A stretch of DNA of 64,000 bases. Source: Eledone cirrhosa (lineage: Eukaryota). This document shows, piece by piece, positions 6,174 through 62,165 of the stretch (the stretch's first letter is position 1; each line of letters opens with the position of its first letter). The notes under the pieces were generated by a model. It saw only the letters and a list, made by a program, of their open reading frames with translations. It ran no database searches and was not told the origin of the DNA. The position numbers were made by a program, and so were the translations under genes. The DNA lies in NCBI GenBank assembly GCA_964016885.1, contig OZ024743.1:221650001-221714000 (forward strand), read 5' to 3'.

Positions 6174-7076
6174 CTAACAGTGCTGCGATCGAATGTGGCT
6201 TTTTAGCCCAGCCAATGATCTAAAATGTCTTGCACAGAGTCGGCAACCAAAACATTCACTGGGAATAGTCGGCTGTGGTTGGAGTTCGTGTACTTTTGCA
6301 TGTCGCTTGAGCCCTCCTGCTGATTTACATTCTCTACCACATGTTTGGCAAGCATGATGAGTAGCATCTCCAACAGCAGCCTGGTAGTCAACCACTGGTC
6401 TTACTTTATGACTGCGAAGATGACTTTCGAGTCCAGCTTTGCTTAGGCAGAGTCTCGCACAGACGCTGCATGTCAGCACCATAGGAGGACCCTCGCCGTC
6501 TGGAAGTGCAACAGCAATGCCCTTCCTCACATCCCGCTTTACTTTCTCGTGTGCGATTCGAGATGCCTCAAAGTCAACTTTTCCCTCATATACAGTCTTT
6601 CTCCATTTATTACGATCAGCAGCAACATTTTCCCATGTATCAGCAGAGATGTTAGCGTCTTTCAGAGAGGCTTTCAAGGAATCCTTATACCTCTTTTTTG
6701 GTTTATGTGGCGGTCGTTTTCCTTTAACCAACTCTCCATAGAAGAGTTGTTTTGGTATTCTAGACTCCTTCATCCTGGCAAGGTGACCACTCCAACGGAG
6801 TCGTTGCTTAAGCACAAGAGCTTCTATACTGTCACACATAGAGCTTTCCAAAATCTCGACATCACTGATGTGGTCCCTCCAGTGAACGCCATGGATCCGT
6901 CTGAGACACATCTGATGGAAACGCTCCAATTGCTTAAGATGGTGTCGATATGTGACCCAGGTCTCGCAGGCATAAAGAAGACAAGAGAGTACACATGCCC
7001 TGTACACCTTTACCCTTGTCCTCCTGCATATGTCTCGCCGACACCAGAGTCGCCTTTCTAGCTTTCCGAAAGCATC
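6174..7076 (-). mobile_element. 5'-truncated RTE-clade LINE, open frame, three C-terminal C2H2 fingers
   Basis: AFGKL..VYRACVLSCLLYACETW, RLRWSGHLARM, PKQLFYGEL, DRNKWR; stop followed by a (GT)n tail. Confidence 0.9.
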
Positions 7077-7119
<43 letters not shown>

Positions 7120-7121
7120 CA

Positions 7122-7157
<36 letters not shown>

Positions 7158-7782
7158 TTTATATATATACATATTCGAATCTGTGTTTCAAAACATACTG
7201 TAGCATATAATGCATTGAAACATTAACTGATTTCAGCTGTGGTAGGTAGAGTGTAGAAAATATGTTGTACGTAATATGTATAGAAATATATATAGTTCAC
7301 AGGTTGTAAAACGTAAGAGTCCAACTGTTAAAATTTGATACACTGATGTGTGTGTGTATGTGTATGTGTGGGGGTAGTTATGTATGCATGTGTGGGTATG
7401 TGTGTGTTTATGTGTCTATATGTCTTCCTGTGTGTCCGTGTGTGTGTGTGTGTAGGTAGTTTAGTAATTGTGTTGATTATTGGAGGTGGTACGAATATGA
7501 AAACTCGGTGCATTCTATAGCAGAGTGGATATATATTGTGTACTCAAGTCAAAACACACGATGAAAATGTTTTGATTTTAATCCACTCGTCTGATGAGCA
7601 GTTTGATATTGGAGTCATGTCTATCACATCGATAACAACTTCGAGTCAATCATCGGTGAAACATACGTTCGATATGCAATAACAACTGTTTTAAGTGATT
7701 CTTCGAAATCTCCTTCATAATAGACAGGCAGACAGGCACACAGACAGACAGATGGATAGATAGAAAGATAGATAGATAGACT

Positions 7783-9110: not shown

Positions 9111-9142
<32 letters not shown>

Positions 9143-10149
9143 TGTTATACTTTGGGAGGGTCATGTTGCCAATAAGAAACACACGCACCAGTTGCTTTCA
9201 CTTCAATTTAATTTAATATATATTTATAAATTTACAAATTTATAAATTTCTGGTTGGTTGGTTGGTTCCACAACCAGATAGTTGTTTATATATATATAGT
9301 CATAGTTCTTTCGTCACACACTCTGTGACCTCTTCAGTGACTGGGGATTTCTTTCTTCGTTTCTGTGCCTTTCCTTTCTTCTATCCTACGCCATTTTGTT
9401 TGTGTGTGGGTTGCGTGCTCAGTTTGCGCATGCGCCACATCCGGGTGTCTGTGTGTGTTTGTGTTCATTTTTCTATTTTTCTATTTATATTTGTTTGTTT
9501 ATTTATTTATTTATTGTTGGTTGGTTGTTTGTTCTATGTGTGTGTGTGTTTTCATTTTGTCTTGTGTGTGTTTTCATTTTGTGTGTGTTTTCAATTGTAA
9601 GTTGTTTATATATGTGTGTGTGTGTTTTCATTTTGTCCTTAATTGTAAGTTGTGATGTTGCTGTTCCACTCATATTTTCTATTTAATTTTGGTTTTAATT
9701 CTTTTATGCTTACTGCCTCTGTAATTTGCCTAAACATTGCGTCTTTCTTGTGTGTGGATTCTATTTTTATTTCTATGCTCTCTAATTTACCCCTGTGTTC
9801 TATCTTAGCATGTTGGTAGAGCACAGATGATTCTTTACTATCTTGGAGGTCTCGCCAGTGTTCATTTATTCGTTCCCCTATACTACGAGCTGTCTCACCT
9901 ATGTACACTATATTTTTGTTTCTACATTGTCCCTCAGTACATCTTATGCTATATACTACATTTCTAGTTTTACAGTTAATATGGGGGCTTATTTTACAGG
10001 TTATACATTTCTTATCTATACATGAGGGTCTTTGGAACGGGTATGTCTTGCTAATAAGTGTTTTTACGGAGGTACCAGGTCTTTCTACTATCTTAATATT
10101 GAGATTATGTTTCTTTAGGGCCCTTCTAAATTTGTAGGCTAGTTCACCT

Positions 10150-10683
10150 CTATTTATCAATACAACCCCTAGAGGTGAACTAGCCTACAAATTTAGAAGG
10201 GCCCTAAAGAAACATAATCTCAATATTAAGATAGTAGAAAGACCTGGTACCTCCGTAAAAACACTTATTAGCAAGACATACCCGTTCCAAAGACCCTCAT
10301 GTATAGATAAGAAATGTATAACCTGTAAAATAAGCCCCCATATTAACTGTAAAACTAGAAATGTAGTATATAGCATAAGATGTACTGAGGGACAATGTAG
10401 AAACAAAAATATAGTGTACATAGGTGAGACAGCTCGTAGTATAGGGGAACGAATAAATGAACACTGGCGAGACCTCCAAGATAGTAAAGAATCATCTGTG
10501 CTCTACCAACATGCTAAGATAGAACACAGGGGTAAATTAGAGAGCATAGAAATAAAAATAGAATCCACACACAAGAAAGACGCAATGTTTAGGCAAATTA
10601 CAGAGGCAGTAAGCATAAAAGAATTAAAACCAAAATTAAATAGAAAATATGAGTGGAACAGCAACATCACAACTTACAATTAA
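10150..10683 (+). pseudogene. PLE C-terminal linker + GIY-YIG endonuclease fragment (mirror copy at 9639-10152 on the minus strand)
   Basis: Plus frame reads LFINTTPRGELA..CIDKKCITC..NCKTRNVVYSIRC..YIGETARSIGERINEH..QHAKIEH..RQITEAV..LNRKYEW. The spacer translates into the FxxxTPxGEL-type motif only on the plus strand. Confidence 0.9.
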
Positions 10684-10979
10684 GGACAAAATGAAAACAC
10701 ACACACACATATATAAACAACTTACAATTGAAAACACACACAAAATGAAAACACACACAAGACAAAATGAAAACACACACACACATAGAACAAACAACCA
10801 ACCAACAATAAATAAATAAATAAACAAACAAATATAAATAGAAAAATAGAAAAATGAACACAAACACACACAGACACCCGGATGTGGCGCATGCGCAAAC
10901 TGAGCACGCAACCCACACACAAACAAAATGGCGTAGGATAGAAGAAAGGAAAGGCACAGAAACGAAGAAAGAAATCCCC

Positions 10980-11024
10980 AGTCACTGAAGAGGTCACAGA
11001 GTGTGTGACGAAAGAACTATGACT
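10980..11024 (+). ncRNA. Minimal type I hammerhead in PLE pLTR (mirror 9298-9342; sisters 63101-63143 +, 62446-62488 -, diverged 14385-14441 +)
   Basis: AGTCA-CTGAAGA-G-GTCACA..TGTGAC-GAAA-GAA-CTA-TGACT. Confidence 0.85.
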
Positions 11025-11237
11025 ATATATATATAAACAACTATCTGGTTGTGGAACCAACCAACCAACCAGAAATTTATAAATTTGTAAATTTATAAAT
11101 ATATATTAAATTAAATTGAAGTGAAAGCAACTGGTGCGTGTGTTTCTTATTGGCAACATGACCCTCCCAAAGTATAACAATATCGGTTTCAACACACGAT
11201 TTCAGATAAAGAATCTTGCTAAACAAATTCAGAAACG

Positions 11238-11280
<43 letters not shown>

Positions 11281-14575: not shown

Positions 14576-16146
14576 TTGACTCAACAAGAGGTTTACGTAG
14601 ATAACGAGTTTATGATTTCACTTGTATTCCTATGTAAGTTTATATTGGAGTAAGAAAATTGAAAAAGTGGAGAATAACATGGTCAACAGTACAAACAAGG
14701 GGATTTATTTGCAGTCTAACAATTGTTTCACTGATAGAGTTGTCTAAAAATTGCTGAACACTAAAAAAGCAGTGCCACTCAATTTTAAATACGATGTTAA
14801 CTCTATTAGATCTTCGGAAACTGTTAAAAATATATATGTGTTACCGGCAAATTTACAAATTCAAATTACATCATCAATAATAATATTAATAATAAAGATA
14901 TAGAGAGAAAAGGAGGAAAAAAGGGAGATAGATACAGTAAAGAAAGAAAGGAAAGGAAGGGGAAAGAAGAAGGAAAAAGAAAAAGAAAAAGAGAAAAAGA
15001 AGAAAAAGGAAAAATTATTATAGATAGAAATATAAAGAGAAGAAGATATATAAAAGATGATGGTAGATAGATTGTACCACTTGGATCTATTATGATATCA
15101 CATTATCAACATCATCATCATTATAATTATAACTATAATTATAATTATAATTATAATTATAATTATAATTATAATTGTCATCATCTATCAAAGAACAACA
15201 TCGAAACCTCTTATATTTACATTCATATTTACATTCATATTTACATTCTTATTTTATATATCTCTATTGTTCACTGATTATCTTTATATTTCCCTCCCTA
15301 AATTTATTTCCTCTCTGTCATTTTTATTATCATATAATATAACTTAAAACTAATTAATTTATTTATATATTAAATTGACCAATACACACATAAATATATT
15401 TAACATTATCATATTTTCACCTTATTATCTCTCCATATATCTCAACAATTCTCAAAAACCATTCTTAATAATTTTAATATGTTTAAATATTCTTCGCACA
15501 TTTTTACTCTTTTTACTCATTTTACGTACTTATTTTTATTCTTGATTTTTCACATTTTATACCATTTTATATCACATTAGATATAACTTATTTTTTATGT
15601 ATTTATTTATTTATTTATCTATTTTTTTATATATTTTTTTATATATTTTTTCATATATTTTTTATATATCTACTTTTATTTTTATTTACATTTATTCATG
15701 TATTAAGGTTTATTCATTTATTTGTCCCTCTATTCTTCTTTCTATCCTACGTTATTTCTACTTATGTTTGTCTCTCATCTATCTAGCATCATCTTCTATA
15801 TATCTTCTCTTTATATTTCTATCTATAATAATTTCTTCTTCTTTCTCCTTCATTTCCTTTCTTTCTTTACTATATCTATCTCCCTTTCTTCCCCCTTTTC
15901 TCTCTATATCTTTATTATTAATATTATTATTGATGATGTAATTTGAATTTGTAAATTTGCCGGTAACATATATATTTTTTTAACAGTTTCAGAAGATCTA
16001 AAAGAGTTAACATCGTATTTAAAATTGAGGACACTGCTTTTAGTGTTCAGCAATTTTTAGACAACTCTATCAGTGAAACAATTGTTAGACTGCAAATAAA
16101 TCCCCTTTTTTGTACTGTTGACCATGTTATTCTCCACTTTTTCTAT
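14576..16146. mobile_element. Older pLTR fold-back with ~400-bp arms and ~700-bp AT-rich spacer
   Basis: Imperfect inverted arms ~14657-15070 and ~15773-16146, each with a variant hammerhead; tail on the left. Confidence 0.8.
15984..16092 (+). ncRNA. Hammerhead with variant core CAGAAGA and long stem II (mirror 14712-14823 has CCGAAGA)
   Basis: Stem I CAGTTT/AGACTG; stem II closed by AGAGTT/AACTCT; GAAAC-AATT-GTT palindromic stem III. Confidence 0.65.
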
Positions 16147-21035: not shown

Positions 21036-21336
21036 GGAGTGTAACGTTAAGTTACTGTAGGTTCACTCAGGTTAGCACTCGATGTTTAGGTTCACGTCAG
21101 TAGCGAGGTGTAGAGCTAAACAGAGTGTAGTATAATAATACAAGGACGATTTGTTAAGCCTTTGTTACGTTTATTGATTGGTGACGCTCATTACTACAAC
21201 AGAGGTCCGACGAGCTATTGATTCCAGAGTCGGGTCAGATCGATACAGATCGAACCTTGAGTTGATCAATAGCGAAACGCACGTCACCAATCAATAAACG
21301 TAATGAAGGCATAACAAATCGTCCTTGTATTATTTT
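21036..21336. mobile_element. Small pLTR fold-back with one hammerhead
   Basis: Arms ~21135-21186 and ~21281-21332; tail on the left; TA-rich flanks. Confidence 0.8.
21204..21288 (+). ncRNA. Hammerhead with variant core CCGACGA
   Basis: GGT/ACC stem I, GCTATTGAT/ATCAATAGC stem II, GAAAC-GCAC-GTC. Confidence 0.7.
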
Positions 21337-22049: not shown

Positions 22050-25000
22050 TAATTTACAGACATATACTCAGAGTAGGCCCATTCACTCGGGCCATACTTG
22101 CTTCTCACACCCATCTTTCAACAAAATGCTGGGAAGAGAGCACTTCCCTCTCTACCCTGATTTTCCTTTTCAAATGAAATTTGAAAAAGTTAATCAGGGC
22201 ATCACCGAAGAGGTAACTGCTCGTCTTTAGCCCTTTCAAACGTGTCCACCATACTATCTCTTTCGCCATGGCCACCAGACAGATAAAAACTGCCTGCCCT
22301 TCCCGGCTAAAGGAGGAGGGCGGGGAAATCCTCACGATGGACTCAGCTGATAGCCGGATCCGTCCTACACGTTACAGCAGGTGTTCGACATAAACCCACA
22401 AGTCAGCAATACTCGGACACTGGACGAGTGCGTGCAGGACGGTTTCGTCGCCCTGCGCGCATCTCGGACATGCCCGGCTGACGGCACCTCAATGCCTGTA
22501 GAGTTTATGCTGAACTGGCAAAGCTCACCGGTAGCACTGGCAGGTCAGGGATTTCTGGAAGTTGTCCATAGGCCCGGCCCGAAAGTCCTTCCGAATAGAT
22601 TGGCTAGTTGATTTTCGTCGACGCCTCGAGTTTCTCCAAGTACGTCGTCGCTCTTCCCCTCCACTAATCCTCTATAGAACGCCGATTGGTCGAGGGCTGT
22701 GAGCGCCTGAAGACATTCCAGTCTCCAGGCGCTCCCTCTCGGTCTTCGCTTGACCCAGGACTGCAGCTCCGTCAAGGAAACGAGCTGGGGAAATACGCGT
22801 CTAGCAAACGGCGACCACACCTGATCACTGTCGAGGAAGAGGTGGAGATGTCGTAGCCTGAGCGCGTGTCTTCGCATCATCAGCCAAGTCATGCCCAGCC
22901 CTCCACGTAGCGGGTGTTGACAGCAGATGGACCGCCTGACCATCGGAGCGCGTCCCTTCCACAAAAAGCAAAAGAGCAAACGCTCCAGCGCAGTCAGGCG
23001 GGGCTTAGGACAACGTACGACGGTCAGGCGGTAGTAGATGACGGACGCGATGTACGCGTTAGCCACCTCCGCTCGACCTTTCAGGGATAGCTTCCTTTCC
23101 GTCCATTTCTGGGTGAGAGAAGCCACCCTGCTCGTCACCTCGTCCCAGTTTTTGTCCGTCTGGAGGTCCGGACCGAACCAGACCCCTAGCAATTTAACCG
23201 GTCCGTCCGTCCAGCGCCCGACGATGCTGTTGGACAGCATGGACCTGCCTCTCCAGGTTCCGAGCTGCAGGCCCACTGACTTTTCCTGGTTGATCATTGC
23301 TCCTGTCACCGCTTCGTATTCTCTTAGTGTAGTGCCGATCGCCTCGATGTGTTTGGCGTTCGACACCACTACGGTGACATCGTCCGCATATGCTGACACG
23401 GATCTTCCGCATCCTAGTTCGCGCGTGACGCCCTTCAACATCTCCAGTTTGTGCAGTAATGGCTCGAGAGTAAATACGTACAAGAAGGACGAGAGGGGAC
23501 ATCCTTGGCGGACTGAACGCATGATGTTGAACGGTTCCGAAAGGTGACCGTTTACTCTCACCACAGAGCAGATGTCGCTGTACATGGCAGCGATCCAGCC
23601 TCTGAAGACGGGCCCAAAGCCAGCCGCCCTCAGGACTGCCGCTAGGTAACGATGGTCGACCCTATCGAAAGCTTTCGACTGATCTAAATTGATCAAGGAC
23701 CCACCCGTGCCAGGTACCCTAGCTACCCTCTCTACGATGTATCGCATGAGGTGGAGGTTGTCGTGGATGGATCTGTCGGGAATGGCGCATGTCTGCGCCT
23801 CTCCCACCAGACCACCAACGACAAGCGCCAACCTCTTTGCTAGCACCTTGGCCAAAATCTTGAACTCTGTGTTTAGCAGAGTTATGGGCCTAAAATTATC
23901 TATGTTATCACACTTGTTCGGATCCTTTCTCAGCAGCGCCACCGCTCCTCGTCTCACAGAGCTGGGAATTCTCCCGTTCTGTTGCCAGTTGCATTAGACG
24001 TCCACCAAGAGGCCTCCGAACAAGTCTGGCATTTGTACGTAAAGTTCATAGGGCAGACCTTCCAAACCAGGCGATTTACCCCTTGTGCAGCCAGTCATTG
24101 ACTTCCGTATTTCAGCGGCTGTTATCGGCTTTTCGCAACACTCCGCCTCAGTGGCCGAGAGCCGCGGCAGTCCGTCGAGGTAGACACTAAAGTCCATCCC
24201 TCGATCCGGCCTGCCACTGCCCCCGAACAGTTGAGCGAAGTGTCACTGAAAAGCTTCACACATTTGCCCGGGATCGAGTAGCATGCGCCCGTCGTGGTCC
24301 ACCAAAGACCAGATCGTGGCTTTGTTGCCACGACGCGCCTCCGCCACTCGGGCCCATTGAACGGCTTTCGTTCCCTCGTGTCTGAGAGCACGCACCCTAG
24401 CTCTGACAACGCAACCTTCGTGCTTTGCATTGAAGAATTGGTCAAGGGCCAATTTCGCCGCAAGTACGTCGGTCGCGATGCCTTTGCAAAGCGCCTCGTC
24501 TAATTTTCTGACTAATTCTCCCTCTGCTCTATTTTTCTCTATTGCTAAAGCCTTACTAAACCTAATGGACTCTATTCTAATTGCTCTTGTCAGAGCAAAC
24601 CACCACTTGTTGTTGTTGACGATGGCCCCCGTCAACGCCCGCTTAACTAGTTCGCTAATCCGGTCTCTGTAGGCCTTGCGCGCTGGTAAGGACGCGTTTA
24701 GCTTCCAGTAGCCGGGTCCTCGTCTATGAAGCCTATCTAAGTCAAGCACACAGATCACGAATTTGTGGTCCGTGTAGCTGACTATCTTGAATTGTGGACA
24801 GCCTATGCTAGACCTATCTATTTCCCTACAAAATACTCTATCTAGATATGATCTGGATGAGCCTATGCGATTTGTCCAAGTCCAAATTGGTACATTCGGG
24901 AAATCCAATCGGTACCTGTCAGACAGTTCAAAACGCCTGAGCAGGTTGGTGAGACTCTTGCACCCTCCTCCCCTATCCACTAATCCCACACAATCCCAGC

Positions 25001-25450
25001 GAGCATCTAAGATCCCGTTCCAGTCGCCCACTAACACTAAAGAGCGGGACGTTCCGAGAAAGGACTCCAGACGCCGGAAGAAATCAGGCCGCCCTGCTCC
25101 TGTCGGGGCATAGACGGCCACTAACCTGAAAGCTTGCCCGTCTCCGCTGGTCACGTCCAGCACCACCAACTTACCTTCTGGGTCCAGGAAGATGGCCCGT
25201 ATGGCAAGATCTAAACCTCTCCTAAAAAGCACAGCAACTCCTCCCCCCCCCCCCATCCCGGACGGCTGGGAGATGCGTACACATCGTAGCCGCCGAAGAT
25301 CGGTGCGAAGGCCCGTGCTTCGGAGATTCTGGTCTCGCTGATGGCCACTACATCTATGTTTAGTGACCTGAGGTCGTTGAGCAGGTGGCCCTGCTTCCAT
25401 GACGACCCCAAGCCACGCGCATTTATGCTACCTATTCTGAGTGAGGTCAT
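22050..25450 (-). pseudogene. ORF2: APE endonuclease + reverse transcriptase (frameshifts and stops)
   Basis: MTSLRIGSINARGL, ISETR, LVGDWN, SYLDR, YTDH, KSPGLEGLP, FRPITLLN, DQSKAFDRVD, VRQGCPLS, AYADD spread over several frames. Confidence 0.93.
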
Positions 25451-25484
25451 GTTGAAAAGGAGTGGAAAAGATGGGAAAGACCAC

Positions 25485-27310
25485 TTACCATACTTCTCGT
25501 AGAGGAAGGACGGTTTTTCCATCCTTTTCACTGATTGTGGCCTCCTCAGGAAGGATGTCCTTATAAATCCTCCTGGAGAGTGCTTGTCGGAAGTCTCCGA
25601 TGTCTTTGGGGAATTTTTGTTTTAGTGTCATGTACGTTTTCTGTGTGATGCGAGTGATTTGTATGTGTGGAGGTGGTGTGAATTTTTGGGTTGTTGTGTA
25701 GTCTTTTTCTGTGATGTTGGTGTTGTGTTGGATGTAGTGTAATAATTGGTTGTTGTTCAAATTTAATGCTGTGTAGTGTGTATCGTTTTGGTTGTTTCGT
25801 TTTGTTTGCGTTTGTTGTGGGTTTGTTTCTGTTTCGCATTTTGGTGACTTTTGTGGTGTAGGTGATGGTGGTGTTGGGGTTAATGATGGTGATGGTGTTG
25901 GTGTTTGGGGTGATGGGGTTGGTGATGCTGGTGTGGATGGTGGCATATCTGTCCTAACTTTTTTGTTTGTTAATTTATTTGTTTCCCTCTGTATTTTGTT
26001 TTTGGAGGGGGAAGGAAGAGAATTTTTGTCTTTTTTGGTTTCTTTTTTTTTTTTCCTGATACCGTTTCCCACTCCTCGTCGTCACAATCTGTCTCCAGTT
26101 GTGATAGGCCGAGGAGTGGAAAATCCTCCACAAGCGTTAGTTTTGGTTGTGGCGTGGTAGATGGTGTAGGCGCTGGTGCTAGTTCTGAAGCGTTGGGTGG
26201 TGGTGGTGTTGGTTTTGCTGGTGGTGGTGGTGGTGTTGGTTTTGCTACTGTTGCTGGGGTTGTTGCTGTTATAGTTGCTTCTGTTGTTGCTGCTTCAGTT
26301 GTTGCTGTCATCTCTGCTACTGGTGGTGTTGATGGTTGAGTCATTGGGGTGGGTAGGAGAGGTGGCCTCAACCTTTTAGCCTGAGGGCAGAAAGCCCTTA
26401 GGTGGGTTCCTTCACCACAAACGACACACCTAGGCCTTCTTCTCTCGACAATTGCGGTGAGGTGGCTGCCGTCAGTGAGGTCTATTACCTCTGGGATCTC
26501 CTCAATGCTTTTTTGGTCCGTTTGAATCAGGAGCTCCATCCCAGATCCGGACCAGTCTCCTGCTTTTCTTTTGCTATTGCTATTATCTTTGTGTTGGCTT
26601 CGATGCCGGCGAGGACGGCCGCTATTAGCCAGGGAATTTCGATGGCCAGTGGAACGTGGGTCATCCTGATCTTCACGAGTCTCTGGCCACAATAGCTTGG
26701 GACGAGTATGAAGTCGTCACTTCTTAATGGCGCCATGGAGTGTTCTCTAGCCTCCTCTGATGTTTCAAAGAACACGTCCACGGTTCCATACTTCTGCCCA
26801 CGTCTGATGTGGGTTTTTCTTGCCCACACATGTCCCAAAGCTTTTTGGATTTGCGACTCGGATGCCCGTTCCACTCGGCGCGATTTTACATTAATTGTTC
26901 GATACGACACGGTACATAGGCGCCGATGCTCCATTTTATTAGGTGGGGGGGCTGACCCTGTACCCATCTTTCTTTACCATTTTGGGGGCATTTTCTAAAT
27001 CCTCCTGAGTTACCGTAAATGCTTCGCACTGTTTTGCTACTCTGGCAAAACTCAGGGTGGTTTTTTTAATGTCATTGTTGCTGTTGTTGTTATCGTTATT
27101 TTTGTTATTATTAATTTTAGTTTCAGTTGTAGTGGTGGTGACGTCAGTGGTGTTCGGTATGGATGAGTCCATTTTGGTTGAAAACATTTCGACATCACGA
27201 GTTGATTTATTTTTTCCTTTTGTTTCTGTTGTCGCGGTGGTGGTGGGGGTGGGGGTTGTCGCGGTGGTGGTGGTGGTGGTGGCGGCTTTAACACCTGCAG
27301 TCATTGGCAA
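25485..27310 (-). pseudogene. ORF1: RRM-like region, CCHC zinc knuckle, Pro/Thr-rich tail (frameshifted)
   Basis: CVVCGEGTHLRAFC (Cx2Cx4Hx4C); lies directly upstream of ORF2. Confidence 0.8.
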
Positions 27311-27319
27311 TGGCGGGAA

Positions 27320-28535
27320 ATGAATGTTCGGAGAGTAAGGAGCGTATTAAAGTCACATCTGAACAGTAGGAATGCCATAAGTGCAGTAAATTCCCGAGCT
27401 GTGTCTATTATTAGGTACAGTCCGGGAATTCTGAGATGGAATATTGCTGAACAAAAAGAAATGGATAGGAAGACTAGGAAGCTATTGACTATCTACAACA
27501 TGTTCCACAAGAGGAGTGATATCGATAGACTCTACTTAAGGAGATCTGAAGGTGGAAGAGGTCTTATCAGCATAGAGTACTGTGTTCAGATGGAGAAAAA
27601 CAACCTACACAAATACGTGACTGATAGTAAGGAGCCAATGTTCAGAACTGTACTGAAGGAGAGGACAATAGACCAGGGGATGTCCAAGGAGGAAATAACA
27701 AGGAGAAAGAGCAGCCTTCATGAAAAATCCCTTCATAGTACCTTCTTTGAGAAAACTGAATTCAGAGATCCACAGACATGGAACTGGTTGAAAAGAGGAG
27801 ACCTTAAAAAGGCTACAGAAGGAATGTTAATGGCTGCGCAAGAGCAGGCCCTCAAAACGAAGTGGTTGAAACACCATATTTACAATGAGGAGGCTAGCCC
27901 ACTGTGCAGGATCTGTGGAGAGAGAGAGGAGACTGTGGCTCACATTGTATCCGAGTGTAAACACCTAGCCCAGACTCACTATAAGGGTTGGAGACATGAT
28001 GTGATGGGCAGGGTGATCCACTGGCACCTATGCAAAGTAAACAATTTACCACATTCTGAGAAGTGGTATGAGCATAAGCCAGAGTCGGTGATAGAAAACG
28101 ATCAGGTGAAGGTGCTGTGGGATTTTAGGATACAGACGGACAAGAAACTGGAACACAATAGACCAGACCTGGTGGTTTTGGACAAAGAAAAAAGATTGTG
28201 CCTGATTGTGGATGTGGCCTGAGAAGGAGAGGGAGAAAATTAACCGATACCAGGACTTAAAGTGGGAGGTAAAAAGGATTTGGATCTGCCATGAAGTCAA
28301 AGTGGTCCCGATTGTCATAGGCGCACTAGGTACTATCTCAAAAAGTTTCCAGGGATGGTTAAAGAAAATTGGCCCCGCCACGCTTTTTGGAACGCTTCAA
28401 AAGGCATGCTTGCTGGGAAGAGCAAGAACCCTCCGATACGTCCTGAATATCTGAGGCTGCAGGTAGTGGCTTGATATTCATTTCAACAAACTTTCCAGTT
28501 AACTAACATCAATGACTGAGACTCAAAGAACAATA
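27320..28535 (+). mobile_element. 5'-truncated R4/Dong-like LINE (RT thumb, CCHC, restriction-like endonuclease)
   Basis: RLYLRRSEGGRGL, CRICGEREETVAHIVSEC, RHD, RPDLVVLD..IVDVA, EKINRYQDL; one frameshift near 28220. Confidence 0.9.
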
Positions 28536-28785: not shown

Positions 28786-30167
28786 ATGTGTGTGTGTAAA
28801 TAAATATGTGCAAATACAGTCTAAGTATGTCAAGAGGCAAAAGCTTCAATCAATTGAGACTGTCTTCGTAATTTCAATGCTGAAACACCCTTTAGGGTTG
28901 ATCGGCTAATGCGAAGTAAGCAAATGAAAAACTTCGTACAGCCTAAGGTGATACAATCCTTTTATAAGAATTGAAGACAAAAACGGTGGAAGGATCCTTT
29001 GTTTATATGTGCGTGTGTGTGAGTGAGTATGTGTTCATAGGGGTATGTGTGTATACGTATGTGTACGTACGAATGTTATGGACATTATGCTTTAAACAAA
29101 TAATTCTGGAATAACAATTTCAATTTCTCTCTCCCACCTCCCTCCATATCTCTCCTCCTTTCCCTCTATATTTATATATATATAAATTTATCCTGGGTTC
29201 AATCGGGTGTAACCACAGTAAGTAAAGCACTCAATACAAAAGAGTATAAATATTTAATATAGAAAGGCTTCTACAGGACTAGAACTGTTTCATTCGGGAG
29301 AATCATCAGGGAGCTTACTGATGATTTCTTCCGAATGAAACATATTAAATATATATATATATCCTTCTCTTCCTTATATCTCTCTCTATATATATATCTC
29401 ACTATTTCTTTCGCTATCTGTCTATCTATTTATCTCTCTTTCTGTTTGTAGTCGCAACACTTCCTTAGTGATGACACAATCTCTGCTCCTCTACTAAATC
29501 ACAGCTTTTCACTGTCATAAGCTGATATTACGACTTAAATAGCAACCTTAAAGAATCGCCGTTTTGCTTTAAATATATTTATCTATTTTTAGTGATTTCC
29601 TTACTTTTTATGTTTTCATTTTCTTCCAACTAAGGTGTTTTTTTATATTTATCTATTTTTTCTTCATTTTTTGTGTGTCAGACCACCTACAAGATTACCT
29701 GCCGTCAGTTATTGATCGTTCATAGTATTGTCGATCGGATATCGCATTTTAGATTAGTGAGACTTATTGATTGATTCCTGGTCATATTAACTGTTGCGGC
29801 TGTTGACTACACATGATTTGCTGAGCAGATGTCGATGCAGAAATTGCACGTTCAAGGCGGCATTTCAGTATAATTACTTGCTTGTATGCATATATTTACA
29901 TACATACATGCATACATTTACATTCATACATATTCATACATTTACATAGACACATATATTTACATACATACATACACATACATGCATATATATATTTACA
30001 TACAAACACATACATGAATATATATATTTAAATACATACACATACATACATATAAATACATACATACATACATGCATACCTACATACATACATACATACA
30101 TACATACATACATACATACATACATACATACATACATACATACATACATACATACATAGCGACACAG

Positions 30168-35394: not shown

Positions 35395-35873
35395 TTTTGA
35401 GTTTATGTTGGTTGTATACCAACACCTCAGTATGCAGGCTGGAGCACTCGACGAAGTGCGCAGGTTGGTTTGGTTACTCCGGAGTAGTGTAAAATAAAGT
35501 TAAATAAAAGTCAAATGATTAAAATTTAGCTTCGTTTATTACTGCTATATATATTTCAGTGACAGCCATCTTTGGCTGTGACCTCTTCAGGCAGTTTGAA
35601 TTAGTATGGTATAGACAAGTACATATGTTGTTTAGGTGTATGATATTGTCAATACTCTGATATGCCCAGTTCCTTGTTGGGTTGTTAATTCACTGGGGAA
35701 CTGGGCATATCAGAGTATTGACAATATCATACACCTAAACAACATATGTACTTGTCTATACCATACTAATTCAAACTGCCTGAAGAGGTCACAGCCAAAG
35801 ATGGCTGTCACTGAAATATATATAGCAGTAATAAACGAAGCTAAATTTTAATCATTTGACTTTTATTTAACTT

Positions 35874-36100: not shown

Positions 36101-36253
36101 GACGGCTATTTCTGAGATAGAAATAGCCGTCGAAACGGCTTGAGCTCTGCCGTCGGGGTCATACATTTTCCTATTACCCACTCTACTACCCTAAGTATTG
36201 AGTACTCTGGTGCGTTATAGTCCATCTGATTCCTTACCACAACTCCTTCGTTT

Positions 36254-36277
<24 letters not shown>

Positions 36278-36284: not shown

Positions 36285-37224
36285 AGTTAATATGCCCACG
36301 GGTACTAAGTACCCCTGGAAATATATAGGGTGTCTATGATACAGGGTTGTTCAATGGTATTACTTTGACATACCAGAACTATAATATTGAGATAAGCAGA
36401 ACAAGCAAAATTTAACCAATTTTTTTAAATAAATTAAAAAATATAATTTAAATATTTACCTACTCTCAGTCGCTCTTACCGATCGGTTTCCCTTTGCAAA
36501 ACATTATAAATCCATAGGATTTCTAATGGAAAAGCAAAGTTCATCAGAGAAGCATTTTCCTTTCCTAGGGCTAAAGTCCCAGGAACGGCAAAATATATTG
36601 CCATCTGCCAGCTAGCACAAGATCGAGTGAGGTCGAAAAATGACCTGTACATGAACCAGTCCGTAGAAAAGCGGAAGTAAAACATAGACGTGGTGTCTAC
36701 TTTTGGTTAAATTTTGCTTGTTCTGCTTATCTCAATATTATAGTTCTGGTATGTCAAAGTAATACCATTGAACAACCCTGTATCATAGACAACCTATATA
36801 TTTCCAGGGGTACTTAGTACCCGTGGGCATATTAACTTCTTTTAATATTCTCCGTTATGTAGAGAACAAATCTGTTGTTCTATTTAGCTGCTATTTTTAG
36901 TAGTAAAGTAGACACCACGTCTATGTTTTACTTCCGCTTTTCTACGGACTGGTTCATGTACAGGTCATTTTTCGACCTCACTCGATCTTGTGCTAGCTGG
37001 CAGATGGCAATATATTTTGCCGTTCCTGGGACTTTAGCCCTAGGAAAGGAAAATGCTTCTCTGATGAACTTTGCTTTTCCATTAGAAATCCTATGGATTT
37101 ATAATGTTTTGCAAAGGGAAACCGATCGGTAAGAGCAACTGAGAGTAGGTAAATATTTAAATTATATTTTTTAATTTATTTTAAAAAATTGGTTAAATTT
37201 TGCTTGTTCTGCTTATCTCAATAT
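36278..37224. mobile_element. Retrozyme-like 486-nt hammerhead unit: one inverted partial copy joined to a >1-unit tandem copy
   Basis: GGTTAAATTTTGCTTGTTCTGCTTATCTCAATAT at 36705 and 37191; 36278-36703 is the reverse complement of a permuted part of the unit. Confidence 0.85.
37054..37137 (+). ncRNA. Type I hammerhead (mirror ~36471-36554, minus)
   Basis: TGCTTCT/AGAGCA stem I, CTGATGA, CTTTGC/GCAAAG stem II, GAAAC-CGATCG-GTA. Confidence 0.85.
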
Positions 37225-38123
37225 ATATATATATATATATATTTAAGAGCTAACGAGGTATTGTTTAAGGCAATCCAAGTAGAGGTTATAAGTACTCTGT
37301 ATCGATGAGTCGCGACACTCTGCGGATAGCGGTTTTTAGACACACCGGACCAATGAAACATTTGTTAATACTTCGAATAAACCGTACTGTATAGCCGATC
37401 CATGTTATTCTTCACTCTTTAATTTTATATATATATATATAAGCAAAAGGGATATTTAATTTGTTGGTAATTCAACAAATATATATGTTTATAACTGATT
37501 TGAAGCACTCGCCAAGATTTCTGGAGTATAACACTCAATGATATTAAATAAATGGAAACTATATTTATAAAACCATATTTATTCCATCATATATATCTCA
37601 AAGGTACCAAAACCCTGGTACGCACCCATCAGATAAAATACAAAGTTTGTTTTATAAATATTGACATATCCAGGAAGAAGATCTATAAATATAGTTTCCA
37701 TTTATTTAATATCATTGTATCTATATCTATATATATATAACTTGGTGAAGATATCCAAGGTAGCTACTCAAGTCAGTAGAACGAGTTTTACTATAATTAT
37801 TAAGGCCATATTAGGTGCAATATTAGGAATAGTATGCTGCAATAGCATGGATTGGTGCAGATTTAGTCTAGTTAGGTGGCTGATGAGGTCTATAGTTATT
37901 GTTATTTATTATTCGTTTCTTTATATCTCGTGTAAGAAAACTTTGGTTATTTATGTATATAGCTTTATCTATCTATCTCTGCCTCGTTTTCTCTGTTAAT
38001 TTGTCTATCTCTATCTATGTCTACATCACTACATCCCTCTCTGTCTCTTTGCCTGAAACTCTCCCCCAATCAATGTGTTTCTATTAACCTCTTTCTCACA
38101 CTCTCTCTCTCTCGCTCTCTCTA

Positions 38124-38170: not shown

Positions 38171-38796
38171 AAAATAACAGATTAAAGTTTAAGCAAAGAA
38201 TCGCTGCTTTCACCTTTTACGGGATCTTCTGAAACTAAAAAAGTCAATCTGTGAACGCAGAAGTAAATATTTCAAAAAACGTTGCAACCGGAGGAAGACA
38301 GGAAGACGATACATTGGTTCGTGGAAACGTTCCCTAGCAAAGAACGGGAAAAAACGGAAAGATAATACGTCATTATTTGGAGCGGTGGAAAACAATTACA
38401 CGCAAAGACAAAACCACGTTTATGGTAGAAAAGAAGACGTAGACTAATATTCTATAGGTGGTTCATGGAGACGTTCTCTGGCAATGACGCTCCAAATAAT
38501 GACGTATTATCTTCGTTTTTTACCCGTTCTTTGCTAGGGAACGTTTCCACGAACCAAAGTATCGTCTTCCTGTCTTCCTCCAGTTGCAACGTTTTTTTAA
38601 ATATTTACTTCTGCGTTCACAGATTGACTTTTTTAGTTTCAGAAGATCCCGTTAAGGGTGAAAGCGGCGATTCTTTGCTTAAACTTTAATCTGTTATTTT
38701 AATAAATATTTGCTCTACGGTTCTTATATATTTGATATATATTTATCCTTAACGAGCCTTCTTTGGATTTTAGTCTTCAAATGTATTATTATTACT
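38170..38796. mobile_element. pLTR fold-back with variant hammerheads (mini two-fragment sister at 60621-60716)
   Basis: Arms ~38170-38384 and ~38488-38701; tail 38702-38796. Confidence 0.85.
38635..38685 (+). ncRNA. Hammerhead with variant core CAGAAGA (mirror 38186-38236)
   Basis: AGTTT/AAACT stem I, CCC/GGG stem II, GAAAGC..GCTT. Confidence 0.65.
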
Positions 38797-48242: not shown

Positions 48243-49584
48243 CGATATTAAACAAATGGAAACTATATTTATAAAATCATATTTATTTCGTTATATATAT
48301 TTCTGGGATATCATATTAAAAATATGTTATGCCTTCCTCAGACAAAATACAATACATAAGCTGTTTTATAAATAATTAGTGACATACATTGTAATAATGC
48401 AACTTCCTTTTAAAAGGTTGATTGATTTGGTAGTGAAACTGTTATGATAGTTATATAGAGAGAAAACGAAGATGAGAAGAAGAAGATGAAGAGATGTATG
48501 TAAATAAAAAAGAAGAAGATGAAGAGATGTATGTAAAGAGAAAAGAGATGTATGTAAAGAAAAACAACGGAGCGAGATAGAGAGACAAGGATAGAGAGAA
48601 ATACATTGATGGTGAAAAAAACATAGTAGGCTGCTTTTTGACAGATGATCATCGTATATGTGAGAGGTTAAGGGAAGGGATACAGTTAGATTAGTGTATA
48701 GGAGAAAAAGAAAGAAAGATGATATATTTAAAATATATTAAAAATATATTATGTCTCATCCATTTGAATTATCAATTTTTATGAATTATGCATTATAATG
48801 TAAATATCAGTATTCATGAATGTGACACATATCTATAATGTGTAAAAAAATGACCACATGCTCAGTTTAAAAATTCTTAGGTCTATAAGCAAAATCTGAG
48901 ACAAAACTTCAAACATAAGTATATATGCATTCTCGTGAAAAATGAGAAAAGAGAAGGTTATCTCAAATTCAAGTTGATAAATATAGACGCACATGTGAAC
49001 CTAGGTGATACGCTGCACTGATTCTTATATTTCATGAAAAACTTCAATGTGTCAGAAAAGAAAAACTTCAATGCGTTAGAAAAGATTCCACCCTACATAC
49101 ATTTACATACATATATACATATATATAGACACAAAACATATAAGATATACATTAACATCTAAAATAATCATCGATCAAGCATAGAGTAGACAACAGATAT
49201 CAATATTAAAATTAAAAACGCCAAGAATATCTTCGTCACTCCACAGAGTATCTAGGGACGCAAGAGAACATAGTATGCCACGCATATCGGTCATAGAATC
49301 AGAGTCAAAAGCAAACAAGACCAAAATTGCTCACCAAGCCTTATTTATCAGAAATCATTCAAAACTTATTCTACAAATGCTCTTATATTTATTATAGAAG
49401 TTTATCCAGCTTAAAAATTTATTCAAAAGATTAGGAACAACGCCAATTTTAGGGTAGTTTATTTAATCTCATTAATTATATATTCATGCGGAAAGGTTTT
49501 AAAAAAAAATTGAAGGAATCGAAAGATTTATCGCCAAGTATCACAAATAGTCAAATACCTTAAGTAAATATACTACATTTTATA

Positions 49585-51759
49585 CTACATTTTAAATTTA
49601 TATTTATATTTAAATGTTGAGTTCAATCTATGTCTGCAACAGCTGAATAAATTGGTTCGTAAATTAAGGGAATTTTTAGATTTTAATATAAAGAATATCT
49701 CCTCCGCGCAGAGGTCACAAGTCTCAGAAGAGGAATTAAAAGGAATCCCTTTTGAGACTATATTCCAAACCATCGAATATCCAACTTTATCATGCTTAAG
49801 TTGCCAGAGTAACCCTGACAGCGATGTTGATGATTTTTTATTTGGATCCGTGAAAGAATTTTTGTGATTATTATAGCGAAGTTTAAATTCTGTCGAGGTG
49901 GAACCAACATAATTAAAAGAATTTAAATCAGTTCTAACATTACAGTTGTATATTATATTTTTAACTAAGCAATTGTTATTTAGCGGACATTTAGATCTAT
50001 CTCTACAGTTACAGTTTTTTAGTTGAATATTGTTTAGGCTATTTTCGGTATTTTGGCTAGGTTTTAGATTCCTATTATTTATTCTATTAATATTTTGTGC
50101 TAAATTTTTGGTGGACGAGTACGTTAATTTTATAGTATGTCTATTAAAAATTGAGTGATACTTATGTGTTCTAGGGAAGCGTTTGTCAAGAGCATTAAAA
50201 AATAGTTTAGCGATGTGGGTTTTAATGTTTAGTGAGAAGGGGGGGGGGGCAAACCATATTATATTTCTAGTTCTATTTCTTTTCTGGTTTTTGAAATTAT
50301 TGTAGTGCTTTCTATTATAGTTGTTAAAGTTGTTACTGTAATTAAAATTGTTGTTATTTTGGTTAGTTTGTCTATTATCGATGTACATAATTTTATCACT
50401 ATATCCAGCTCTAGCTAAAGCATCATTATAATATTGGGCTTTCTCGTCAAAAATATTTTTATTGGAAGAGATTCTAGAGATACGTTTTTGAACAGAGTTT
50501 ACTATAGTATTTTTGACAGATCTGGGGTGATTGGAGCTAAAATTGACATAATTCAAGTTTTCATTTAACTTGTGAAATGGATAGTGAAGACATGTGTTGA
50601 GATTAAATGTTACGTCTAGGAAATTGACTATTCTATGGTTATTCTCAATTTCTATTTTTAGATTAAGGTAATTAAAAAATTGTATAATTTGTTTTCTTTT
50701 CTTATTTAGTTCAGAGTTATTATTTTCAATAAGTAAAAGCATGTCATCTCTATATAAACCTCCGGTAACACCGGGTATTTTCCTATGCAGCGAATTAATC
50801 ATAAATAGGCCCACAAGGTCCGTTACCTGAGCTGAGTCTGATGATCCCATAGTAATGTCAAAATTATTATCTCTATCTGCCCTAGTCCATAGTTGGTTAT
50901 TAAATTCTATCAAAGTTTTCCTTGCCGATAATATAATGTGCATTTCATTGCTAGTTAGGTCTGTATGCTTGAATGCGTAATTTAGTGCCTTATTAAGTAG
51001 ATTAGGGGTAATGGATGAATAGTAGTTAGCAATATCTAGTTGAATAAATTTATTATTATTGTTATATTTAATTTCATTAAACCACTCAATGACCTCCCCA
51101 GTACCCTTCCACAAGGTCAAGCCAGGTAAACAATTCAAGTCCTTAATTTGCTGTATCACTCTGTCTAGAATGTTCTTGCTAAGTTTACCCAGGTCAGATT
51201 TTGATGGTGCAATCAACCTGACTGGCAAGTCATTTTCAAAATTTCTCTTGTGATCTTTCATATTGATCTTGGGTTTCCTAGGCACGAAAGGTTGTGTTTT
51301 GTTCTCAATTTCCAACTCATGCATTATACATGATGCCTCAACATTCATTTTCTCAAGTTCAGCCTTATCTGCTACCTTGTACTTTTTCCTTAGTTCTTTC
51401 AGTATGAGGCCATTATACATGTCTTTTTCCACTCCATAGAGGTTGTTGGTTTTGTCCGATTTCACCAAGATCTTTTCTGTTCTCTCTAAGCTCGCAATGT
51501 TATCCTTAATGCTTTTCAGATATTCCTGGCCATTGAAGCTTCTCTTGAATCTGACTCCTTGTATGATAGAAATTATATCGTTTTCAAAATCATTCAAAAG
51601 TTTGTTGGGGGGTGGATTTTTTTTAGATTTGAAGACTCTGTCTAGGTCTGAGGCATTTTCGTTTACGTTAGATTTAGATTTATCAAAGTGGAATGCACGC
51701 CACCTGATTCTCCTTATAAACTTTTTAAAAGGAAGTTGCATTATTACAAGGTATGTCAC
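49585..51759 (-). CDS. PLE polyprotein: reverse transcriptase + Cys-rich linker + C-terminal GIY-YIG endonuclease (N-terminus truncated; first ~12 codons come from the inverted pLTR)
   Basis: 724-aa open frame with KFIRRIRWRAF, QLDIANYYSSI, ITMGSSDSAQV, GLYRDD, VNFLDVTF, linker CNCRDRSKCPLNNNC, NIIY..NYVGST..RYNNH and CDLCAEE..CCRH. Clade (Nematis/Neptune-type) is not certain. Confidence 0.93.
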   Translation of the reverse strand: MTYLVIMQLPFKKFIRRIRWRAFHFDKSKSNVNENASDLDRVFKSKKNPPPNKLLNDFENDIISIIQGVRFKRSFNGQEYLKSIKDNIASLERTEKILVKSDKTNNLYGVEKDMYNGLILKELRKKYKVADKAELEKMNVEASCIMHELEIENKTQPFVPRKPKINMKDHKRNFENDLPVRLIAPSKSDLGKLSKNILDRVIQQIKDLNCLPGLTLWKGTGEVIEWFNEIKYNNNNKFIQLDIANYYSSITPNLLNKALNYAFKHTDLTSNEMHIILSARKTLIEFNNQLWTRADRDNNFDITMGSSDSAQVTDLVGLFMINSLHRKIPGVTGGLYRDDMLLLIENNNSELNKKRKQIIQFFNYLNLKIEIENNHRIVNFLDVTFNLNTCLHYPFHKLNENLNYVNFSSNHPRSVKNTIVNSVQKRISRISSNKNIFDEKAQYYNDALARAGYSDKIMYIDNRQTNQNNNNFNYSNNFNNYNRKHYNNFKNQKRNRTRNIIWFAPPPFSLNIKTHIAKLFFNALDKRFPRTHKYHSIFNRHTIKLTYSSTKNLAQNINRINNRNLKPSQNTENSLNNIQLKNCNCRDRSKCPLNNNCLVKNIIYNCNVRTDLNSFNYVGSTSTEFKLRYNNHKNSFTDPNKKSSTSLSGLLWQLKHDKVGYSMVWNIVSKGIPFNSSSETCDLCAEEIFFILKSKNSLNLRTNLFSCCRHRLNSTFKYKYKFKM

Positions 51760-51788
51760 TAATTATTTATAAAACAGCTTATGTATTG

Positions 51789-51854
51789 TATTTTGTCTGA
51801 GGAAGGCATAACATATTTTTAATATGATATCCCAGAAATATATATAACGAAATA
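51789..51854 (+). ncRNA. Type I hammerhead in the pLTR of the autonomous PLE (mirror 48284-48349, minus)
   Basis: TATTTTGT/ACGAAATA stem I, CTGAGGA, stem II, GAAA-TATATA-TA. Confidence 0.82.
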
Positions 51855-51982
51855 AATATGGTTTTATAAATATAGTTTCCATTTGTTTAATATCGTAAAC
51901 CTACTCCAGAAACTGTTGAGTGCTTTTATATCAGTTATAAAATATTTACTCGTTGTAACCCAACAATCTTAAATAAAACTTT

Positions 51983-52032
<50 letters not shown>

Positions 52033-52315: not shown

Positions 52316-52716
52316 AAAATACACTATGTTGAAAAGGTAACACACTAAAGAGATATACAGTGCGCTATCAATAAAACAGGGAAAAACCACCAGTGTATGG
52401 AATCTATAACCTATGAAAGGAAGAGTATAATTAAAAATATAAATTGGATTTGTACGTGTGTTATATAGTTATAGAGGTATTTATTTACGCTTTAATTTAT
52501 ATTTTTAATTATCGTGTCTATACTCTGCCTTTCATAGGTTATAGATTCCATACACTGGTGTTTTTTCCCTGTTTTATTGATAGCGCACTGTATCTCTCTC
52601 TAGCGTGTTACCTTTTCAACATATTGTATTTTAAAGAGCTCAGGATTTCCTCTCCTTTGAGCACATTATTTACAGGGAATGGCGAGAGTCTATGGCTCCG
52701 TTAATGTATCGTGGTA
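52316..52716. mobile_element. Asymmetric fold-back element in (TA)n, no hammerhead seen
   Basis: Arms ~52316-52445 and ~52493-52633; tail 52634-52716. Confidence 0.75.
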
Positions 52717-59805: not shown

Positions 59806-59898
<93 letters not shown>

Positions 59899-59930
59899 TA
59901 CACGGGTGTGTATGATTGTGTATAGAAGAT

Positions 59931-60317
59931 TATATTAATAAGAGGAATTCCAACTTTGTCTGATTTACTCGTTTTATTTACAATCCTTTAAAATTTATAA
60001 TGGTATTATAATGAAATAGTATGATAGAATATTAAATTCTAAGTGTTAATTGAGCAAGTACTTTCATGCTTTCGCAATCTTCAGGTTCATAATATGTGGT
60101 GACAGTCAAGTTTGCAATTTTCAACTGACAATTGAAAATTGCAAACTTGACTGTCACCACATATTATGAACCTGAAGATTGCGAAAGCATGAAAGTACTT
60201 GTTCAATTAACACTTAGAATTTAATATTCTATCATACTATTTTATTATAATACCATTATAAATTTTAAAGGATTGTAAATAAAATGAGTAAATCAGACAA
60301 AGTTGGAATTCCTCTTA

Positions 60318-60325
<8 letters not shown>
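59931..60325. mobile_element. pLTR fold-back with two hammerheads
   Basis: Arms 59931-60124 and 60132-60325, 7-nt spacer. Confidence 0.88.
60167..60205 (+). ncRNA. Very compact (39-nt) type I hammerhead (mirror 60051-60089)
   Basis: TGAAC-CTGAAGA-T-TGC-GAAA-GCA-T-GAAA-GTAC-TT-GTTCA. Confidence 0.85.
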
Positions 60326-60406
<81 letters not shown>

Positions 60407-61390: not shown

Positions 61391-62165
61391 ATATATATAT
61401 ATACGGACGAAACCATGGTAGAGATATAATTACGGTATGTACACATTTCTTCTAAGTTTGAATTTACACCTAATTGTGTATGGTTGACGGTATATTTAGT
61501 CAGTTTCTACATGCTGTTGAAATGTTGGATAAATACTCTATTGGGGCCACCGCGAAGAGGCCGCTATCGGTTATTTGTCGGAAATTTCTTCATAGGAGCC
61601 TTTATTCTTATAGCCTGGTCTAATTGATTTTTATATGGTTAATTATGCTAATTGGGAGAGGGAATGCTATATATTGTATCTAATAATTCTAAGGACATGA
61701 TTTATGATATATATCAGATAGGGTGTGGTAGAAAAACCAGGTGGACTATAACCCGCCAGAGTACTCGATACTTGGGGTAGTAGAGTGGGTAATATGAAAA
61801 GATTCAGGAGCCCGACGATTGAGCTCGACCGTTTCGACAAATATATATATATATATATATATAAAATATTAAAAAAATAATGAATAAAACAATGAAACAG
61901 TTCCTTATATTTAACGATCGTTTCTAGGATATATATGTGTTAGAATTGGCATGTATATTCAACAGATCTATGATCGTTAAATAATGTATCTACATATATA
62001 TATATATATATATATGAGGAAGTATGACGCCGACGGCAGAGCTCAAGCCGTTTCGACGGCTATTTCTGGACTCCAGAAATAGCCGTCAATACTCACTCTA
62101 CTACCCTAAGTATTGAGTACTCTGGTGCGTTATGGTCCATCTGGTTACTTACCACAACTCCTTCG

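Follow-up and report, generated by a model that had tools for sequence, protein, structure and literature searches.

Hydra-clade Penelope-like elements (PLEs) carry two tandem copies of a bulged hairpin (H1 and H2), one located 7–11 nt past each insertion end. Directly observed in the elements are the hairpin motif and its duplication, a constant spacing from both ends, covariation within the stem and TA-like bases at the ends. Both hairpins likely serve as docking sites in the element RNA, placing the element's own RT for internal initiation. The elements were analyzed in a 64-kb stretch of DNA (hereafter the window), whose host genome comprises 3.0 Gb and is rich in (TA)n, and in a 1.064-Mb sample.

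The family A insertion and its one-sided tail

The minus-strand frame 51762–49585 of the window encodes a Penelope-like RT with a C-terminal nuclease. Its ORF (49585–51720, minus strand; RT plus C-terminal GIY-YIG-type EN) contains the motifs RWR, DKT and CxCX5C as defined in PMC8557442. The original prediction described this element as an autonomous PLE, which applies to the family, as complete family A copies encode 741 aa, but not to the window copy, which is 5' truncated at the inversion junction and lacks ~30 N-terminal residues. The 3' pLTR of the insertion (48243–48422, minus strand) abuts (TA)n with its short end at 48243. An inverted, 5'-truncated pLTR arm (51716–51897, plus strand) pairs with 48422–48241 and is identical to it at 178 of 182 positions. 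This pairing confirms the predicted arm end at 51897; the short end has its final non-TA base at 51895, and the TA at 51896–51897 is microhomology. The inverted copy (51716–51985) extends 90 nt past the short end, and this stretch from short end to long end (51896–51985, plus strand) is the known one-sided PLE tail. H2 is absent from the window copy of family A because the insertion terminates at the long end. Putative hammerhead core-like motifs, which are pattern matches only, are found in the inverted pLTR (CTGAGGA...GAAA; 51797–51838, plus strand) and in its sister (48341–48300, minus strand).

Profile searches returned little for this element. The Pfam search of the window ORF and the PDB sequence search using alignment A1 each gave zero matches. 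An AlphaFold model of the PLE protein (pLDDT 73.8) matched generic RTs in Foldseek (LINE-1, TERT, DRT and retrons; TM 0.3–0.5), with TERT chains alongside LINE-1 among the top matches. Among the best 150 of 223 matches in an Rfam scan of the window, all were microsatellite-driven miRNA-type matches below gathering scores, and none was a hammerhead.

Assignment to the Hydra clade

By motif criteria, the window PLE has the marks of the Hydra clade, which are described as RW(R/K), DKT, a CxCX5C linker, a C-terminal EN and (TA)n targets (PMC8557442); the tree made here places host-genome families only. An RWK-type N-terminal motif is present as RWR, RWK, RWT or RWH in 8/9 family ORFs by pattern, and family D2 carries the variant ILWR. 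The change from DKG to DKT is seen in the DKT column of all nine rows of alignment A1. The linker CxCX5C occurs in 8/9 ORFs, with Y(I/V)G downstream in 7/9. By eye, family A shows CDLC and CRH near the end of EN and no CCHH arrangement, and its insertions target (TA)n. Hydra elements are generally short (<3 kb) and have tails of 30–40 nt (PMC8557442). The tandem periods found here are ~3.1–4.2 kb, longer than the <3 kb expected of the clade, which is a tendency and no strict criterion. The hammerhead core pattern was matched in families A, B and I and in two non-coding units described below, and not in C, E, F or G. Family C lacks a CTGANGA core; upstream of GAAAC it shows a variant core in an arrangement resembling a hammerhead (L282, ~4450–4800; window 36120–36255).

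A bulged hairpin near the short end

TACTC (51902–51906) and GAGTGCT (51918–51924) are both present where they had been reported. H1 of family A (51903–51924, plus strand) has the base ACTC/GAGT, the upper stem CAG/CTG and a TT bulge, and is followed by GCT; its MFE fold shows the bulged stem. The first C of CTC lies at 51904, 8 nt past the short end's final non-TA base. The consensus originally proposed, TACTC..GAGTRCT, captured a real motif but was too narrow in its literal form, which has only 7 matches in the window and was dropped. The refined motif has CTC/GAG at the base of its stem, a bulge of 2 nt on the 3' side (mostly TT, TA or TC) and a covarying upper stem of free sequence, closed by a loop of 3 to ~70 nt. 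For the window sites it was written as (C/T)TC, upper stem, 2-nt bulge and GA(G/A)Y, and in this form it fits 18 of the 21 sites examined. The misfits are two decayed copies, 37526, with additional bases at the bulge, and 38713, with the bulge AC in the window copy and TC in sister copies; and one variant, 36850, the second hairpin of a 486-nt unit, with an A after GAG. Two of the sites listed in the original prediction were misassigned: 45308 consists of a short arm alone, lacking both tail and hairpin, and 37525, taken for a solo pLTR, is part of a fold-back.

Five further H1 types of the window belong to families A to J as defined by protein searches of the genome. H1 is found on the minus strand in family B (5455–5477, with a second copy at 2705–2683), D3 (35447–35484) and D2 (21078–21125, with an upper stem of 7 bp), and these families have their own open frames elsewhere, of 821, 894 and 861 aa, respectively. 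The family C type, with its own 784-aa open frame elsewhere, has H1 at 36181–36202 (plus strand) and sister copies at 62096–62117 (plus), 61785–61764 (minus) and 47905–47884 (minus). Family C is the most abundant tail family, with 47 BLAST matches in 1.064 Mb. In family J, H1 (38712–38755, plus strand) has a decayed bulge in the window copy, and the ORF in L302 comes after an H2-like hairpin.

Other H1 sites lie in non-coding units or in families without a linked ORF. A 486-nt non-coding tandem unit (36703–37229, plus strand) carries H1 in a TTC/GAA variant (36744–36772), H2 (36850–36864) and a hammerhead-like core (37061–37088), and an inverted copy of its H1 lies at 36378–36350. The H1 at 52639–52661 (plus strand) is from a family that takes the form of a 544-nt non-coding tandem unit with H2 in L105. 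The short, abundant 29246 family has H1 at 29230–29244, with sisters at 34098–34082 and 16317–16301 (all minus strand). The remaining minus-strand sites are those of the 14652 family (14580–14650, with a 57-nt loop), the 47250 family (47243–47220) and the 59474 family (59472–59436, with a TG bulge).

Enrichment at short ends in fold-backs collected without the motif

The positional enrichment that had been predicted at short-arm ends is found in fold-backs gathered from the 1.064-Mb sample. The sample includes 100 stretches of 10 kb taken regardless of content, 20 of which flank the window, and fold-backs were collected blind to the motif, giving 115 entries, 79 of them asymmetric. A strict form of the motif lies ≤22 nt from the short end in 36 of the 79, and in 30 of the 60 asymmetric fold-backs with a tail of 25–200 nt. 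A chance or low-complexity origin is ruled out by this count, as controls reach 0–2 of 79 (swapped GAG..CTC, 1; two anchors within the arm, 2 and 1; an anchor at +30, 0; reverse complement, 1) and 200 shuffles of the 79 fold-backs give a mean of 0.7 and a maximum of 3 matches. Counted per family, the motif is present in 14 of 26, where shuffling yields 0.58 on average. The strict motif was defined after full-length copies of families A–G and I had been inspected, and 12 motif-positive clusters belong, by our count, to other families. The strict motif is missing from 43 of the 79 asymmetric fold-backs and from 12 of the 26 families, some of which are variants (TTC/GAA, CTT/GAG or a TG bulge) or other PLE clades, with several unclassified. 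Starting from the motif instead, 88 of 419 motif-like sites in the 1.064 Mb are followed by a TA run 35–110 nt on, compared with 58/711, 14/481 and 21/591 (3–8%) for control stems at tail distance.

Two hairpins bound the tail

The prediction that the hairpin marks the short cDNA end was borne out, but the short end is not the only one marked, as a second copy marks the long end. In family A, 28 TA-terminated ends were placed on the full-length locus L024, with 17 at position 848 and 9 at 938; the CTC stems of this locus begin at 857 (H1) and 949 (H2). Two non-overlapping motifs are present within 250 nt ahead of the ATG in 8/9 families, and the same double motif is found in 0/72 ORF-internal windows. 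An inversion interrupts the ninth locus (D3), which has H2 only; the H1 of D3 was found at the D3 3' end. The count of nine omits family I, with a variant H1 and an unclear long-loop H2, and family J, with a partial ORF and a changed GAG in H2. In families A, B, C, D1, D3, E, F and G, the motif is also carried by copies that read through the long end. The tail is therefore the interval that separates one signal from its second copy. Tails in motif families measure ~59–150 nt, and H2 is never included in TA-terminated insertions. Microhomology of the ends to (TA)n averages 2.5 nt, versus 0.5 nt at control positions, and CTC begins 4–6 nt after it in 20/31 cases.

Every inverted insertion seems to use both starts, because 43 fold-backs in motif families pair a short with a long end and none of the 18 symmetric entries was classed as short/short or long/long. 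One symmetric fold-back, in L101, may be short/short; it appears to be of the 486-nt family, which was outside the reference set. In the 29246 family, L333:1077–1524 holds five head-to-tail copies of the 91-nt short end, each with a hammerhead-like core and with short TA runs between them; this array points to repeated priming from the short start. Perfect tandem arrays are found for families B, C and E, and in family F each of the 150 scored matches shows 100% identity to the query, with a full 832-aa frame in many of them. Several Hydra families thus look recently active.

The location of the hairpins upstream of the ORF raises the question of whether their function, close to the ORF start, lies in translation, transcription or RNA stability, with the distance to the ends being incidental. 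H2 lies 16–66 nt ahead of the ATG in the nine families, which is what such a role would lead one to expect. The distance to the ends is tighter (most 6–11 nt), however, H1 lies 87–170 nt ahead of the ATG, and the non-coding units retain both hairpins, all of which make this a very improbable account of the motif. A second role for H2 near the ATG is possible.

The distance to the ends could also be set by RNA cutting, in which a host nuclease, an element protein or self-cleavage, directed by the hairpins, would cut 7–11 nt upstream and the RT would start at the new 3' ends, as in LINEs. The fixed distance and the hammerhead motifs in Hydra pLTRs would both agree with cutting. The hammerhead core of families A and B is tens of bases away from the ends, on their upstream side, and in the Poseidon PLE, RNA with an extended 3' end gave the same dominant product and hammerhead mutants inserted normally (PMC11167929). 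We therefore consider cutting improbable, and docking of the RT on intact RNA remains our preferred reading of the fixed distance.

Stem structure, covariation and strand

The register of the stem was examined in 39 de-replicated end-families chosen only by a CTC near the end and the next GAGY, with no condition on bulge or upper stem. With a bulge of 2 nt on the 3' side, one or more upper pairs form in 32/39, whereas this is so in 6, 6, 7 and 10 with bulges of 0, 1, 3 and 4 nt. The bulge is TT in 23, TA in 6 and TC in 3 of these families, and the offset from end to CTC has a median of 8 nt. Watson–Crick pairs occupy upper positions 1–3 in 30, 27 and 24 of the 39. When partners are shuffled the counts fall to 15.9, 11.6 and 10.5, and 0/5000 shuffles reach the observed values, although the families are related and this is no true probability. 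The upper stem thus covaries across families, with kinship weakening the shuffle test. Upper pairs 1 and 2 each require at least three two-sided switches by hand count on a 10-family protein tree of the host genome only, and within family A upper pair 3 is G-C (23), G-T (4) or A-T (14). The pair beneath CTC/GAG is mismatched in 11/39 end-families.

Folding in isolation is weak. In ensemble predictions, the lower stem exceeds P = 0.5 in 14/31 and the first upper pair in 8/31; the antisense strand folds equally well (18/31). Single MFE folds show the bulged stem in 5/7, with z from 0.04 to −2.3. Counts of G-U versus A-C pairs (1:1, 4:5 and 4:3) favour neither RNA nor DNA.

The strand tests thus give RNA no advantage, and the hairpins may be asked to act in DNA: a cDNA or a tandem or circular intermediate would span both ends, and the GIY-YIG EN would recognize the hairpin and cut the upstream TA-like bases, resolving short and long ends. 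Those bases resemble the EN target. Craig et al. suggested that the tail most likely derives from EN-mediated resolution (PMC8557442), and the tail of the D. virilis element is needed for EN recognition, as cited by Frangieh et al. (PMC11167929). On the other hand, the tail ends of the Poseidon PLE are RT start sites in vitro (PMC11167929), and since H2 is missing from TA-terminated insertions, a longer intermediate would be required every time. Action in DNA therefore appears unlikely, if less so than RNA cutting, and we continue with the RNA docking reading.

Families, open reading frames and non-coding units

The original prediction held that many non-coding RNAs parasitise one PLE enzyme. 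The protein searches speak against this as a general account: Hydra-type families with long open frames of their own number at least nine in the genome and are 37–67% identical, and the partial families I and J come in addition. Six of the ~12 window families possess their own ORF, namely those at 51902 (A), 5479 (B), 35486 (D3), 21130 (D2), 36180/61790/47910 (C) and 38712 (J). Only the families at 36743 and 52637 were seen as non-coding tandem units, of 486 and 544 nt, which keep both hairpins and a hammerhead-like core and have no ORF >69 codons. These two units, and not families A–G or J, correspond to retrozymes in being short non-coding head-to-tail units with a hammerhead motif. The 29246, 14652, 47250 and 59474 families are unlinked to an ORF; genome-wide linking covered 29246 alone, with no ORF in 30 loci. 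No full-length copy of family H was found in the genome. Because six window families own ORFs and only two were seen as non-coding units, the shared hairpin is mainly an inherited clade trait, kept also by some non-coding units.

The idea that all families are non-coding parasites, mobilized by a single autonomous enzyme via a template boundary of the telomerase kind, is accordingly highly unlikely as a general account; it is largely refuted by the family-specific ORFs and applicable at most to the non-coding units. What speaks for it is that two families consist of non-coding tandem units with both hairpins, that four window families are unlinked to an ORF and that a common signal would permit cross-mobilization. 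The comparison with the telomerase template boundary also has to be rejected: on the sense strand, the stem lies 3' of both ends, beyond the primer-pairing bases and thus 3' of the start, whereas the telomerase TBE is a helix 5' of the template that stops synthesis (PMC4993307). The proposed RT-docking role itself fits a conserved, covarying stem at a fixed distance from the cDNA end across otherwise dissimilar families, and is retained as a candidate function.

The motif in other animals and other Penelope-like elements

Among the six Hydra consensi in File S7 of PMC8557442, as inspected by eye, the exact motif is present in three: coral Hydra-2_Amil and sea cucumber Hydra-2_Ajap, both at the 3' end, and Hydra-1_Ajap, twice before the ATG. 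The motif is degenerate in two (copepod and octopus), and the region is missing in the sixth. Searching the 584-kb supplement of the same paper with six 9-nt terms gave 8 matches, of which 4 lie in the hairpins of those Hydra consensi and 4 in apparently coding sequence of Naiad or Chlamys. A metagenome scan gave 2 loci (L359 and L360); L359 ends ahead of the tail.

A non-Hydra PLE in the window (9139–11239; fold-back with a GIY-YIG Pfam match and CxxC/H motifs) served as a control. Its zinc-finger layout differs from that of the Hydra families, and its 60-nt tail has no motif. The insertion at 9139–11183 is very young: it is a perfect inverted repeat of 1014 nt with a 17-nt spacer and the EN C-terminus in both arms. 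GTTTCAA(A)CAC occurs past the short end of this element (window 11179–11239, plus strand) and past the long end in one read-through copy (L097:5884), so that this family may have a duplicated signal of its own, with one example only. A TA-targeting fold-back family (L041:9267, L040:1214 and L106:5139), with tails of 45–68 nt without the motif, represents a second control clade; the fold-back in L041 adjoins a distant GIY-YIG-like frame. The window fold-back at 59852–60396 has hammerhead-like cores at 60172–60194 and 60084–60062 and a tail that enters (TCTA)n, also without the motif. The frames at 22545–26716 (minus), 27206–28222 (plus) and 6174–7187 (minus) look like LINE-type retrotransposon fragments, with endonuclease/RT and zinc-finger-like motifs seen by eye.

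Proposed mechanism

Reverse transcription of the Poseidon PLE begins at two internal sites, one at either boundary of the tail, with priming on both nicked strands (PMC11167929), which is why we read H1 and H2 as docking sites in RNA. RNA 3' of the starts is needed in that system, the hammerhead is not, and a dimer is predicted (PMC11167929). Docking, use of a dimer and action at the RNA level are inferred for the Hydra families; the biochemical data were obtained in another clade, whose AC-rich stem-loop is a different one.

The RT/EN protein, probably a dimer, would nick both strands of a (TA)n target. Each nicked 3' end would then pair with 2–4 UA bases of the RNA located 4–6 nt 5' of the CUC stem base, and copying would proceed away from the stem, so that the stem that sets the start would itself remain uncopied. 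One cDNA would begin before H1 and yield the short arm, and the other before H2 and yield the long arm, which would carry H1 and the tail because its synthesis starts before H2. Joined head to head, the two cDNAs would produce an inverted repeat with a one-sided tail. Most families would rely on their own ORF, and a minority of non-coding tandem units that keep both hairpins would be mobilized in trans.

In its broadest form, this would amount to programmed twin priming, in which a dimeric, telomerase-related RT sits on two tandem copies of an RNA aptamer conserved from cnidarians to echinoderms and, with both nicked (TA)n strands lined up on UA bases a defined distance away, starts two internal cDNAs per event. 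We put this forward tentatively, as a proposal whose chances we place somewhat below even.

Relation to known systems

RNA stem-loops to which an RT is recruited in cis, and which non-autonomous elements can borrow, are known from the 3' ends of stringent LINEs and SINEs and from hepadnavirus epsilon, and twin priming of LINE-1, with two primers on opposite strands, leads to inversions. Those systems have one signal near an RNA end or a chance second priming, whereas here two encoded copies would set two fixed starts.

A close likeness is with Poseidon PAc of Anolis (Frangieh et al., 2024, PMC11167929), which has two tail-bounding internal RT starts, a stem-loop at the start, nicking and extension of both strands of an AT-rich target, a requirement for RNA 3' of the starts and a predicted dimer. 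Initiation in PAc takes place inside an AC-rich stem-loop, whereas the starts described here lie 5' of a doubled CUC/GAG bulged stem; PAc is also one element of another clade, and no cross-family motif or duplicated signal is reported for it. By eye, the PAc template (PMC11167929) contains two similar GCC..GAAAG stretches ~30–35 nt apart, just 5' of AC-rich bases near the RT starts, and possibly these are a duplicated signal as well. The Hydra PLEs of Craig et al. (PMC8557442) share RW(R/K), DKT, CxCX5C, the C-terminal EN and (TA)n targets with the families described here, as well as hammerhead pLTRs, partial tandems, an inverted 5'-truncated copy and a one-sided tail. They differ in tail length (30–40 nt versus ~59–150 nt), and the tails were attributed to EN resolution (PMC8557442). 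The words "hairpin", "palindrom" and "fold" are absent from the main text of that paper, and "stem" occurs in the context of the hammerhead only.

Telomerase RNA resembles the proposed system in having a related RT, an internal template, positioning of the primer by a few bases and a protein-bound helix with a conserved base (PMC4993307). Unlike the TBE, the hairpin here is located 3' of the alignment bases, where its role would be to set the start, and no repeat addition is implied. By this analogy, the telomerase comparison would fit the alignment step, not the boundary element.

The tails, the inverted arms, the two internal starts and the stem-loop at the start of one element were already published. 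For the clade-wide cis-element motif and for a duplicated signal, no description was found in the literature searched, which comprised freely accessible text.

Implications

How PLE RTs, the closest retroelement relatives of telomerase, choose an internal start, and how the one-sided tail and inverted arm arise, are long-open questions that the hairpins now make directly testable. The motif provides a marker to find and orient Hydra elements and their non-coding partners, which are very abundant in the host genome. The hairpin might also serve as an RNA handle for TA-targeted insertion tools. If programmed twin priming is true, a portable hairpin of ~25 nt would allow any RNA to be copied from a chosen internal point, other PLE clades may have duplicated signals of their own, and the tail and inverted pLTR of PLEs would be the footprint of a duplicated RNA signal.
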